DNA of 62,866 nt, counting the filler, from Sluysia triapertura (lineage: Eukaryota): assembly GCA_046118255.1 (NCBI GenBank). It is 5 parts of 5 records of this genome, joined end to end, with 100 filler letters (N's around TTAATTAATTAA, not from the genome) between each part and the next. Parts side by side here need not be neighbours in the genome. Positions count along the whole stretch, not along the records: positions 1 to 12,048 come from JBJNIA010144610.1; positions 12,149 to 25,188 come from JBJNIA010063859.1; 3 more parts are not named here. One strand, given 5' to 3'. The position numbers and the translations under genes were made by a program. This document shows, piece by piece, positions 7,875 through 20,174 of this stretch. Below the pieces are notes generated by a model, which worked only from the letters and a program-made list of their open reading frames with translations, was not told the DNA's origin and did no database searches. Within the stretch, counting starts at the first letter, position 1; each line of letters starts with the position of its first letter.

Positions 7875-8440
7875 TGTTGGGATTGCCCAACAGTGGATCT
7901 CGATATGAATGAAAACATATAAAATCATAAAATGAGGGAAAAACTGATATAAGTGATGGATTGAACATTATAAACATTGTTGAAATAAGAATCATGAAAG
8001 AATATCTTAAGGTTCCAAAGTCATATATAAGGTTTTAAGATCTTAATATGGCTTGATATGGAATTGAAAGACTTTTGGAAGTATTAGGGTACCTTTTGAA
8101 ACGTGCAGCTTTGGGGTTATTTGAAACCTAATTGGCCTTTAAGTATTCTTGAGAAAGTGAAATTAAATTCATTATTTTTATGTATGTTAACAGTACTGCT
8201 GATTGTCTTTTTAATGTGAAAAATAATTTAAGTAAAAATAGATTGAGTAGAGTAAAAGAAAATGACGGTTGATAATAAATCAGATTTCTATGTTGGGTGG
8301 ACCTTACCATGTAGTTGTTAAAGTCGTAATTGTCGGTCTGATCCTCAAAGAGGTTCGGATGATTTGTGTGAGAGAATGTTTGGTTGTGAGATTGTGAATT
8401 GATTGGATGATGAGAGAATATAAATAAAAATTTCAAAAAA
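7875..8440 (+). repeat. Module A, copy 1: dispersed repeat starting with the hairpin TGTTGGG-ATTG-CCCAAC
   Basis: Stem-loop ACTGTTGGG-ATTG-CCCAACAGT at 7873-7894. The start matches 36790-36866, and 8160-8400 aligns in reverse complement with 32445-32670. Confidence 0.8.
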
Positions 8441-8527
8441 TAATAATAATAAATCCATTGAGAAAATCATTGCTTTGGTTTGATTATTATTATTATTTTA
8501 ATTGATTTTTTGTTGGTGGAATTATTT

Positions 8528-10102
8528 TTAAATTTTATTATTACTTTGCCAATTTATTTTTAAAATAATTTGATTTTTAGGGTTTAGTGTTGTTTGATTA
8601 AAATTTTTTAAAATCGCATATAAATTAATTAAATATACTATTAAATTTATACAATCCTTATTATTATAATTATTATTCAAACTAAATACTAAATATTTAA
8701 AATCATTACATGGATTATTAAAATTTAATTTACATGAAGACAGAAAGAACTCATAAACAAACAAAAGATTTTTATTTTGTAACAAATTATATATTATCAA
8801 ATTAACCGCTATATCCTTGTTCACGAAGTGTAGTCCAACTTCTAAATGATCATCTAGACAACGAAAAAAAAGGTTATATAATTTACGAGAAATTTTAATA
8901 AAATAAAAAATTACGTTTTTTGCTTTCAAATTATAGCTATTGGGTTCGTCGCCTTGACCAAGTATACATCCTTTGTACGTCTTTCGCCATAGTAGAGTTG
9001 AGCATATGGTTTCATCGTTTGTCTTATGTTTATTTTCGACATCACTTGATCTGTTGTGAAAACTCTGAATAAACACATAATACGGATCTAAAAACACCTT
9101 GAAATCGCCCTTTGCTGAATATATAGAAAAACTATTTTTTGATTGTTGAATATTAAATGAGCTATTGAACGACTTTATATGATTAACGAACAGGAAGATA
9201 ATTGTACGTTCCGACACTATATGTACTGTGTACACAGTTCTGGTTGCTAAAGTTACCTCCATGCAATTCATGTGATGAAATTTTAGACATTCGTCATTGA
9301 GGTTAGAGAGTTCATAATTTTTGAAATCATTATCATTTATACTTGATTTGGCAACATTTAATTTTGATTCTGAAATCTGAACTTTTTTGTACATACTAAT
9401 TTAATTTCAATACAAAAGTGATTCTTGATGATATGACGGATTAGACGAGTAAATCAGTTGATCTAAAATTGAGTGGATGATTAAAATACGTTCTTCGTTG
9501 TTTTTAAATGAAATATATTTGTCCGGCTCTTTAGATACTTCATATATTAATTTCTTAATGTAACTTAATAAATACAATTATAGTTTGTTGAAAGTAGAAC
9601 GGTTATTGTGAGCTGACTTTGTTAGCTGTTCACATAGAGAAATCGATTCTGTTAGATTCCTTAAACTATAACATTTGGAAGAGCGTAAACGCCATAAATT
9701 ACTTGAAATTGGTGCAGTTAACATGATCAACATAATTAGTTCAGCCTTGAGCTCTAATCTTAACTTCTGAATTACATTGTAATCTTTTATTGATAAATTA
9801 TTGTGACTCCTAAGGCTATGGTGATTCAATATGAATCTTGATTTATAATCTTTAAGATATTGATATACTAAACAAATCTTATTATTCGTACGTAGTCTAC
9901 TCGCGGTGAACAAGTTAACTAGAACATTAAACCAGGACGTTTCATTACAAGATTCGATAAATAAATTATTACCAGAATAATGGACGATTTCCAATGAATT
10001 AAGCATACTACTTCTTGTTTTCTTGCAATCCCATTTGAAGCCAATGTTTATAACAGTTATCAGAAGCATGGTTTGTCTCAAAATAGATATATCAAAATTC
10101 AA
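8528..10102 (-). pseudogene. Unknown intronless ~525-codon gene, paralogue 1 (three in-frame stops, no frameshift)
   Basis: ORFs 9578-10102 and 8528-9394 are in the same frame. The gap between them reads L*LYLLSYIKKLIYEVSKEPDKY...ESLLY*N*ISMYKK. Motifs are shared collinearly with 17438-19107. Confidence 0.75.
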
Positions 10103-10199
10103 TTTTTTAATTTTTTTTGTTTTTAATCGTTCGCAATTATTTAATTTTTTTCGTCAATTTTTAGATTTTAATTTTTTCAGTTAGATGATCAATAATTTA

Positions 10200-10375
10200 T
10201 AATTGGTCATCCAATCAGAATTATCTATCTGAAGTTTTGTGAATTTATTTCTGATTGGATGGCAGTAATATGAATGGAAAATATGATATAGCAGTGTTGA
10301 CGATTGATTAGCCGTCATCAATATTGACACAAATGTATCTACTGTAATGAGTAGTGTCAATATTGGTGGTGGTAA
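10200..10375 (-). promoter_or_regulatory. Promoter-like block with inverted CCAAT pair upstream of paralogue 1
   Basis: CCAATCAGAA...TTCTGATTGG inverted repeat, CAATATTGACAC...GTGTCAATATTG inverted repeat, then CCAAT-TTATAAA ~100 bp before the ORF. The homologous block is at 19205-19335. Confidence 0.55.
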
Positions 10376-10399
10376 ATTAATAAATTAAATTTGATTATA

Positions 10400-17370: not shown

Positions 17371-17437
17371 TTATATTGATTCAAAAATGAGCATAGAAGA
17401 AAATATTAAGTGTATTGTTAAAAAGTGTGAATATCAA

Positions 17438-19107
17438 TTAAATACAATTTGATTGGGTTGGGTTTAATTTTAAATTATAATTATGTTTGAAAACAAAATT
17501 CGTCATGTTGTTAACTTTTAACGTTATGAAATATTGGGAACTAGTCAAATTCGTAGCATTTTTAACTAAATTTAAATTTACATTAGAAAAAAATAACGTA
17601 TGAAGAAAATTGACACATATTTTATTGAACTTTATAAAATTTTTAGCATTTAAATTCAGAGTTTGTTTGAAGTTCATCATTTCTTCTTCATATCTCGACC
17701 ATAGACTTTTAAAACTCCTAAAGAACAATAACAGATATGAATTTATGTTTATAAAAATAATAACACAATCAAAATTAAAAGTTAGAATTAAATTTTGAAT
17801 CGTTTTCGTCCACGTTGTGAGCAAGGATCGTCGTCAAGAATAATATCGAGGGAGAGTTTTCGAAAAGATGGTATTTGAGAAAACTTGCGTCAACAACTTC
17901 GAGACTTTGTGGTTGAGGTTTTTGTCGAGGTGTAGAATAGATTAATGTATGACTTTTGATTAAATCTCCTTGACTTAAAGTTAATCCTTTATTTAAATTA
18001 TCTATGCATACTACTGGATAAAGACTGACGACATCGAATGGATCTGTTGTCATTTTTACGAATATACCAAATAATTTTTCAAATTGCCTGTTTATGCACA
18101 ACATTCTTGCATATTGTCAATTAATTTTAGAAGTTACTATTGTGTCTTCATTAACTAAGTATGCTGTTTTAACTAACATTAAAGCTAACTTGAAATTCTC
18201 ATTCTGTGAACAAGCCTGACTAATTGTGATCTTGGAATAACAACTAAACAGCATGTTTGATTGTTTGTAGTCATTATCGTAATTGGAAATTGGTTTGAAA
18301 AACATAAAATTCGATGCATCTTCGTTTACATTGAATTGATAAACAAAAGGATCCTTTTTTGAATTATATATGCTACTTAATAATTCCGGATTACATTTTG
18401 CTTTCAAATCAAGCATACTATAACTGTGATGCATATCTTTATTTGTTTTCCAGATACTGTAGTATCATATTAGTAGAATGCAGATAGAAATTGTTCATTG
18501 CAGTATTGGTGTTATTTACTCCTTCGTCAAATTTTATAGAATAACTATCGTCATTGAATTTTCCAGATGTTATACGAATACTGGATAACCAATAATCTGG
18601 ACTTTTATTATTATTTTGAAAATCGTCCGAGTGATGTTTCACACATATCGAAAGTGGAGTTGTTAATTTAATAGAAATCTTCTCCGCATTACTGGCACAT
18701 CTTGATGATATTACACACAAGTTTGGTAAGAATTGTTCAAGATTATCAAAATATGTTGAATTAGCTTTTGTGCGATATTCTAAAATAAATCCTTGTAACA
18801 CATGAGTTAATTCTAATGAATTCTTTAATTCTGTAAAACTTCATTTTCATCAGTTTTATGGTTTTCTGTCTTTCAAAGTACATAATCTGTAAACATCAGT
18901 AATAATAAACAGCGACATTTTCAACACACTAAAAGAAACATCTTGTACTAAAAACACTTCAGTTAACTTTTCTTTTGCTGCTTTAAACTTTGTAGACAAA
19001 TTTATACCATAATTAATAACATTTATTGAGGAAAATTCTAAATAGCATATTTCATGAAGTATAATTTGCAGACAACTTAATTCGTTTAGCAATACACTTT
19101 CATTCAT
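17438..19107 (-). pseudogene. Unknown intronless ~555-codon gene, paralogue 2 (stops and frameshifts)
   Basis: Five abutting minus-strand ORFs form one interrupted frame. Motifs VINYG, IKLTTPLS, LVNEDTIV, DPFDV, NKGLTLSQGD, LFFR and LNPT occur in the same order as their counterparts in 8528-10102. Confidence 0.75.
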
Positions 19108-19204
19108 TTCAAATTTTCTAACTGCTCGGCGGTAAAAAAAGTTGTTAAAAAGTTGTATTTTTGATACAAACTCTTTTAACTATTGTCTGAACTATTTTAG
19201 GTAA

Positions 19205-19335
19205 TTTTTTATTGGCTGTTCAACCAGAAGGATAGATATAATAAAAGAAGCCACTCTGGTTGGACAACCAATGATGGCAACAAATTACACATGCGGATTA
19301 ATAGTGTCACCATTGATAGTGGTAGTTACCACTGA
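19205..19335 (-). promoter_or_regulatory. Promoter-like block upstream of paralogue 2
   Basis: CAACCAGA...TCTGGTTG inverted pair. TACCACTATCAATGGTGACACTA corresponds to TACCACCACCAATATTGACACTA in copy 1, and TTCTGGTTGAACAGCCAATAAAAAATTA to TTCTGATTGGATGACCAATTTATAAATTA. Confidence 0.55.
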
Positions 19336-19439
19336 GTGTTAATTTGACATAAAATAGTGATTCTAGTAATAATAATAAAAATGAATGACATAATAATAAT
19401 GATAATAATAATACAACTAGGTACCTAGATTTAAAACAA

Positions 19440-20174
19440 AAACATAAATTCTTATAATTTGTATATAACAAGATCTTTTCTTTTAATGCTTTTGTTTTCT
19501 TGACATGAATAAATTTCTTTAAGTTTGATATTTTCAATTACAATATTTTGAATATATTACGAAAAAATGGTTAAAATTGGTGTTAAGGTTTTATGGTAAA
19601 ATTGATGGGTGAATGTTGAAATATTGTGAGCTTATAATGTTTAGGATTGAGTATGAGATATATAATGTAATTGTGGATCAAAAAGTTTTAGCCAATGTTT
19701 ATTGTGCTTTAAGGATTTCGAATAACTTTGAATTTTAGGTTAATGATTTTAAATGAGACTGGTGTAGTGGATGTGAAAGGAATAAATAAAGCAACAGTTT
19801 TGATACATTTAAAAAGATAGTTATATAATATTAACGAATGTCCTTATGACTGTACTATTGTGTGAGTATGGATAAAATGTTTATGATGAACTTTTAATGT
19901 AGGTTGTTAATTCTGAACGTGGATGTGACTCCGATTATGAATTTGAGATGTTTTGAATTATTTTGAAGGTTTAATTGTAATTCTGATGTTGTGAAATAAG
20001 GAATGAAATGTTTAGCTGGGTTTTAATGCGTATGAGTGGTCTGAGCTTAAATATAATTTTAATGTTGTAGAGTATGAAATGGAAATGTTTTAAGATGTTG
20101 TGATAAGGTTTTGGATAGTGTTTTTATTATAAGTTATTGTAATAAAATTCCTAATTATTGGGTTGGTCACCATA
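19440..20174 (-). repeat. Module B, copy 2 (starts TATGGTGACCAAC)
   Basis: Same position relative to the ORF as copy 1. TACAACATTAAAATTATATTTAAGCTCA matches ~36688-36717 at 26/28. Confidence 0.7.

Follow-up and report, generated by a model that had tools for sequence, protein, structure and literature searches.

A decaying orphan gene family within repeated modules with retroelement-type ends in the genome of Sluysia triapertura

We analysed a 62,866-nucleotide stretch of DNA from Sluysia triapertura (filler included; hereafter the window), composed of five parts of the genome assembly GCA_046118255.1 joined end to end, in which two copies of an orphan gene lie beside repeated non-coding modules. 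Copy 1 (8528..10069, minus strand) has its first ATG at 10069 and comprises ~513 codons with three in-frame stops and no frameshifts; the frame extends back to 10102. Over 10102-8528 the 524 codons form a single frame with 3 internal stops, where ~45 were expected, and the other five frames across the region contain 33-70 stops. Copy 2 (17438..19107, minus strand, ~555 codons) is spread over three frames, with five stops and two frame changes, near 18450 and 17800. The cost of a frameshift-tolerant path was 3 for copy 1 and 9 for copy 2, compared with shuffled means of 30.5 (minimum 23) and 32.4 (minimum 26), respectively, in 100 local shuffles, and the 14 lowest costs among 428 window-strand pairs all fell on these two regions. 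Both frames are real, intron-free genes, once selected and now decaying; ~4% neutral change suffices for the three stops of copy 1. The initial annotation had described 8528-10102 and 17438-19107 as intronless frames of ~525-555 codons that had undergone long selection and then recent decay, and the stop counts and path costs agree with this description, copy 2 being divided among three frames. Since neither protein contains a strongly hydrophobic 19-residue segment (maxima 1.05-1.8), the orphan protein is likely soluble.

Both genes are preceded by promoter-like boxes and, further upstream, by a module termed here B. A CCAAT/ATTGG cluster with a TATA-like element (10190..10260, minus strand) lies upstream of copy 1 and a CCAAT/ATTGG pair (19205..19275, minus strand) upstream of copy 2. 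The boxes, at 10202, 10211 and 10254 for copy 1 and at 19211 and 19268 for copy 2, stand 105-190 bp before the first ATG and presumably belong to promoters. Alignment of the two promoter regions gave a score of 38, equalled by 3/200 and 0/200 controls. Module B1 (10380..11100, plus strand) is G/T-rich and finishes in the B terminus; the homologous module B2 (19444..20174, plus strand) has a mutated G in its terminal TGT. The two align over ~720 bp up to their ends with 57% identity (447/784 columns), and the score was equalled by none of 200 shuffles and none of 200 block permutations. Both are G-rich and C-poor (C 6-7%, G 19-20% at 10400-11100 and 19450-20174). The third module, B36 (36352..36789, minus strand), represents the outer 438 bp in inverted orientation and is interrupted by an A module (A36, see below); its score was equalled by 0/200 shuffles and 12/200 block permutations for the comparison with B2, and by 6/200 and 10/200 for that with B1. 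At 11100, 20174 and 36352 the three B ends each deviate from the terminal consensus by one base. The distance from the ATG to the B end is 1,031 bp for copy 1 and 1,067 bp for copy 2, and the two genes are on the same strand and of similar length. The 57% likeness of the B modules, set against the ~4% decay of copy 1, suggests divergence at the level of families and a fast-evolving terminal sequence.

The far side of copy 1 is occupied by module A (7875..8412, plus strand), which starts with the terminus TGTTGGG, is C-poor on the plus strand and carries an ATTGG box at 8402. Its terminus forms an 18-bp near-palindrome (7875-7892; 7-bp stem, 4-base loop) that is partly retained at 33297 and 36790. 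The module is 77% identical to 32424-32674 over 260 nt and recurs at 36790. Its mismatches are spread evenly over the three codon phases (17/19/13), a non-coding substitution pattern by which a second gene in module A was ruled out. The second A terminus and module, A33 (32424..33297, minus strand), contains ~345 extra bases, and the third, A36 (36790..36866, plus strand), meets an assembly gap after 77 bp. A36 sits within B36, which resembles a nested insertion, and the contig may have broken there as at a multi-copy repeat. A possible remnant of inner module A beside copy 2 (16875..16970, plus strand) matches in 69/103 columns; it is AT-rich and weak (z 3.5, 40 shuffles). In both the A and the B families conservation ends at the terminal TGT. 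The strand bias is common to A and B but the sequence is not: the A-B score was equalled by 143/200 shuffles, and the ends share the first three bases and a loose CCAAC, with only a few terminal bases inverted. Each end motif, as derived from these same copies, occurs three times in the window, compared with 0.01-0.02 times in 100 shuffles. Modules A and B1 together with copy 1 form a TGT...ACA unit of 3,226 bp (unit 1, 7875..11100, no strand assigned), which is a candidate solo giant long terminal repeat (LTR) without a target-site duplication (TSD).

Most elements of the architecture proposed in the initial annotation were recovered: the inverted-CCAAT block ~100 bp upstream of each frame, the ~700-bp strand-biased module closing on a consensus terminus at each copy, the 3.2-kb TGT...ACA unit at 7875-11100 and the repetition of the terminal modules, of which the window holds three A and three B ends. 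The proposal that both copies have the same non-coding architecture applies to the B side and fails on the A side, copy 2 having no A terminus. A single mobile cassette composed of A, gene and B is not established, with one complete case, no TSD and one of three A ends adjacent to a gene.

The two proteins had been regarded as deeply diverged paralogues with seven collinear motif pairs, each of which occurs, in the same order: VINIG/VINYG (residues 17/30 of copy 1/copy 2), IMLTAPIS/IKLTTPLS (126/146), IVSERTII/LVNEDTIV (295/319), DPYYV/DPFDV (339/357), YKGCILGQGD/NKGLTLSQGD (376/374), FFR (412/465) and LNPK/LNPT (506/551). Standard aligners (BLAST, HMMER, HHalign) did not detect the paralogy, whereas order-sensitive tests favoured it. 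When each copy-2 frame was aligned locally with copy 1, the scores stood at shuffle level, being equalled by 362/500, 144/500 and 194/500 shuffles. tBLASTn with copy 1 did not recover copy 2 at E <= 1, the HHalign probability of 0.19% and the phmmer E of 2 resembled those of a reversed control, and the DNA of the two copies did not align (z 0.6). The global protein score, with copy 2 read through and X placed at breaks, was equalled by 2-11/300 full shuffles and by 34-55/300 within-block shuffles. Such values would fit two unrelated cargo genes set behind a common B module. Against this possibility, the collinear chain comprised nine strong 8-mer pairs versus at most 6-8 in the controls (matched by 0/40 rotations, 0/56 reversed rotations and 0/200 permutations of 40-residue blocks), the global score was equalled by only 0/40, 0/56 and 1/200 of these controls, respectively, and strand, length and ATG-to-B-end distance agree between the copies. 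With shuffled sequences, the chain rose clearly above its controls at two of six settings (threshold 19 and 22, band 60; 0/200 full and 0-1/200 block shuffles), and at the other four it was equalled by 2-11/200 full and 5-30/200 block shuffles; because the settings were picked after the results were known, this support is moderate only. At threshold 22, 20/34 strong pairs lay near the diagonal, compared with 3/29 for the reversed protein. Taken together, the order tests and the shared upstream DNA make common descent of the two proteins highly probable, so that their kinship can be called likely, though not proven; unrelated cargo genes are correspondingly improbable, and would be compatible with any of the alternative origins of unit 1 considered below.

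Searches for relatives of the orphan gene, which left out prokaryote genome collections as well as phage and plasmid records, were uniformly blank. Copy 1 matched none of 4,934 candidates from 5.8 billion protein clusters (lengths 288-917), and in the broadest search, conducted with copy 1 alone, none of 1.84 billion cluster representatives at E <= 0.001. The middle and N-terminal frames of copy 2 matched 0/425 and 0/491 candidates, which is weak evidence, as they were compared with longer proteins only. PDB sequences gave a single match at E 1.6. The Pfam matches to PH_18 (E 0.18) and DUF2834 (E 0.13) were under the cut-off, those to PHROGs phrog_21304 (E 0.006, copy-2 middle frame) and NCBIfam (E 0.045) were lone weak matches on decayed AT-rich frames, and the top Atlas matches for two open copy-2 frames, 0.86 (Vps41 TPR-like) and 0.79, had low recognition scores inside the shuffle range. 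Among viral contigs 0/17 and 0/25 candidates matched, apart from four 17-base terminus matches in contigs otherwise unlike the window; metagenome contigs gave 0/406 candidates and no pattern match, and Rfam and tRNA scans gave none. As stated in the initial annotation, no DDE, reverse transcriptase (RT), HUH or tyrosine-recombinase motif is evident: no transposase, RT, HUH or tyrosine-recombinase profile was detected in Pfam (E <= 1 and E <= 5), PDB sequences, PHROGs or NCBIfam, and the Gypsy-like DDE integrase family of Pfam was likewise without a match at E <= 1 or E <= 5. Single-sequence structure predictions had pLDDT values of 33 and 30, too low for fold comparison, and are uninformative on a structural match to mobile-element enzymes. 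A search of sequencing runs listed two DNA-type runs (shares 0.34 and 0.07) and no RNA run, a result without bearing on expression, empty sites or range. The searched libraries are mostly microbial, and genes within animal repeats are frequently unannotated; therefore, the gene is an orphan in the searched collections and not necessarily in nature. Within these bounds, the orphan gene family is real and unexplained, and resides in repeated modules with retroelement-type ends.

Our preferred interpretation, to which we assign about even chances, is that unit 1 represents a Gypsy-type solo LTR of very great length that houses an accessory gene. For copy 2, the likely source is an LTR of another, distantly related family, of which the gene and module B are present. 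An unusually large LTR with an embedded open reading frame (ORF) was one of three options offered initially and fits best among them. The few-base terminal inversion of unit 1 is LTR-like and unlike elements with terminal inverted repeats (TIRs). Kilobase LTRs are known from insects, the LTR of Woot from Tribolium measuring 3.6 kb. The A ends, TGTTGGG/CCCAACA, fit the integrase-recognition consensus of LTRs, TGTTRNR...YNYAACA, and the B1 end TGTGGTG corresponds to the CsRn1 5' motif TGTGGYG (PMC3601003). Gypsy LTRs of 997-2,137 bp are given for Culex cqgypsy elements (PMC3286476) and of 2,577 bp for an Isis-like element of Calliphora vicina (PMC3630058), and, among insect Gypsy elements, long LTRs characterise the Osvaldo lineage (PMC3286476, PMC3630058). 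Accessory ORFs of LTR retrotransposons usually lack database relatives and can be served by an antisense promoter of their own, as described for plants, where they lie outside the LTR (PMC7264820).

Under the solo-LTR interpretation, a full element with gag-pol between two such LTRs would have been inserted by its own integrase, and recombination would then have deleted the internal part. The accessory gene would have been copied as part of the LTR, with its own CCAAT/TATA promoter driving transcription and with polyadenylation close to the stop codon; it would have stayed intact while the family transposed and decayed neutrally once stranded. The mismatched flanks may be the outcome of a flank deletion, or of two insertions having recombined through their LTRs. 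An orientation with A as the start of U3 and the G/T-rich B as U5 is slightly favoured, which would make the gene antisense. By analogy, one may guess at an accessory role of the protein in transposition or against host silencing.

Several observations weigh against a solo LTR. The window yielded neither gag nor pol, and a scan with primer-site motifs revealed no tRNA-Lys site, so that none of the copies is demonstrated to be an LTR belonging to a full element. None of the six ends has a primer site (no TGG within 25 nt outside), and none has a clear polypurine tract (3-11 purines of 15). No TSD is present at 7875/11100, where the flanks CTAC/TAGG match in 0/4, 1/5 and 1/6 positions, and no alternative partner end for B1 with a matching flank was found within 15 kb. 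Inward of A33 there is neither a B end nor a gene remnant, the frameshift-tolerant cost being at shuffle level (31, shuffled mean 32), and a third gene copy there was ruled out. At copy 2 no A end was found, only the weak AT-rich match to inner A; a gene lies next to an A end in one of three cases, and the series A, gene and B is complete once. As to the series of promoter, poly(A) signal and GT-rich tract expected of an LTR, CCAAT/TATA-like elements and several AATAAA are present, on both strands; the AATAAA positions differ between B1 and B2. TGTNR ends are common to Ginger DNA transposons, too (PMC2836005), and no 500-codon gene inside an insect LTR was found in the literature covered, to which subscription journals and Repbase reports were mostly external. 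With no TSD and no gag-pol-paired copy in the window, unit 1 is described here as working like a solo LTR and is not filed as a Gypsy/Metaviridae LTR.

Some of the same observations would be explained if the gene and B constituted one element or fragment and A another, unit 1 being a chance or nested juxtaposition and not a mobile unit. The missing TSD, the occurrence of gene plus B twice and of A plus gene at one of three A ends, the likewise abutting but oppositely oriented A36 and B36, and the dissimilarity of A and B beyond their ends are consistent with such a composite. We nevertheless consider it unlikely, as A and B point towards each other with the same strand bias, the stop codon is ~115 bp from the well-conserved portion of A, the weak inner-A match adjoins copy 2, and the window contains as many A ends as B ends. 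Still less likely is a non-autonomous DNA-type cassette with a cargo gene and unlike ends, for which a Gypsy-like integrase of the Ginger or Polinton type would supply cut-and-paste mobilisation in trans. Its TGTNR ends and size would fit Ginger1 (2.6-7 kb; PMC2836005), as would the absence of a primer-binding site or polypurine tract at 6/6 ends; however, Ginger TIRs span 40-270 bp, there is no TSD, and a selected cargo in diverged non-autonomous families would need a separate explanation. The least probable alternative is an undescribed class of animal element or an endogenous virus segment with unlike TGT termini of the retro-integrase type and one gene whose relative-less product of ~520-550 residues is needed for spread: a single transposase-sized gene between two defined ends, selected across deep divergence and without a relative of copy 1 in 1.84 billion clusters, would suit it, but among the shared segments no acidic, HUH or tyrosine motif stands out as conserved, searches of this kind would normally detect transposases and viral structural proteins of known type, and the ends resemble retro-integrase substrates. 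The viral origin suggested in the initial annotation found no support, there being no viral relative and the nearby chuvirus-type glycoprotein being a separate feature.

That glycoprotein, encoded by a decayed and intronless sequence of the chuvirus fusion-glycoprotein type at 3944-6030 (plus strand), matches PF24664 (E 2.9e-8 and 4.7e-4) at 3944-4306 and 5290-5787 only, with no match on either orphan gene. Upstream of it, decayed frames at ~3050-3900 gave no family of note in the Pfam search. No link between the glycoprotein and the A/B units was found, and its assignment as the env gene of the same element was rejected, as the sequence ahead of 7875 lacks a polypurine tract and the two are separated by unrelated DNA over 1.8 kb. 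The window has 16-32% G+C, AAT microsatellites and five assembly gaps; its intron-split host exons and the glycoprotein remnant point to an animal host, which is likely an arthropod. Two exons at 28896-29626 (plus strand) match PF13620 weakly and resemble the last part of a host gene of the carboxypeptidase D/M type. Low-complexity, probable host exons at 41127-41573 and 49723-50037 (minus strand) matched no Pfam family. Another repeat family occupies 12693-13508 and 44088-44936 (67% over 878 columns), and unit 1 is flanked on its left by a fragment of it (7777-7867); an empty site inferred from this repeat was rejected, since the right flank does not convincingly carry it on. An element resembling a miniature inverted-repeat transposable element lies at 14528-15180, with inverted arms of ~145 bp that are 76% alike. 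Short frames at ~37750-37910 (plus strand) and 42132-42347 (minus strand) resemble pieces of Tc1/mariner transposases, the latter without a Pfam match. A decayed, intronless sequence at 33890-35400 (minus strand) encodes BACK (E 6e-16) and Kelch (E 7e-5), directly followed by the start of Sec7 (E 3.5e-5), an odd pairing situated between the outward-facing ends of A33 and B36.

If unit 1 is a solo LTR carrying a gene, an animal retrotransposon lineage would harbour a full-size protein gene in its LTR, and each solo LTR would spread a promoter-plus-gene unit over the genome. This would explain the kilobase length of some insect LTRs and add a new accessory protein family to the conflict between transposons and their hosts; annotation tools would miss the gene because they treat LTRs as non-coding. 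Should the gene mobilise the unit itself, a new element class would result.

Genes within retroviral LTRs are known from sag of mouse mammary tumour virus (MMTV) and the overlap with nef in human immunodeficiency virus (HIV). As in unit 1, their coding sequence lies in the terminal repeat and remains in solo LTRs; these are vertebrate retroviruses with shorter LTRs and proteins, and no sequence similarity to the orphan gene was detected. No similarity of the two genes to retroelements with chuvirus glycoproteins (Anakin type) or to endogenous copies of RNA viruses was detected, PF24664 being off both genes and the viral contigs negative. Troyka elements, with CG...CG ends and a 3-bp TSD (PMC12440569), are excluded by the TG...CA ends. 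Ginger1 and Ginger2 are like unit 1 in TGTNR ends, size range and single gene, but unit 1 has no TIRs of 40-270 bp (the A-B alignment being at chance), no Gypsy-like integrase domain and no TSD (PMC2836005). Of the features of Gypsy/Metaviridae LTRs, unit 1 has the short-motif TG...CA ends and not the 4-6-bp TSD. It resembles the long-LTR Gypsy elements of the Osvaldo lineage (Isis-like, cqgypsy and Woot) in its kilobase TG...CA form, short integrase-type ends and AT-rich, likely arthropod genome, and with 3,226 bp exceeds the ~1-2.6 kb given for the cqgypsy and Isis-like LTRs; it differs in having no TSD, tRNA-Lys primer site or gag-pol in the window, and no gene is described within Osvaldo LTRs in the available parts of these papers (PMC3286476, PMC3630058). 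The additional ORFs of Grande (gene23), RIRE2, Retand and Boty offer a parallel for the gene itself in an orphan protein, an own, possibly antisense promoter and conservation between related families; in plants and fungi they occupy the stretch from pol to the 3' LTR, whereas the gene described here would lie within an animal LTR (PMC7264820).

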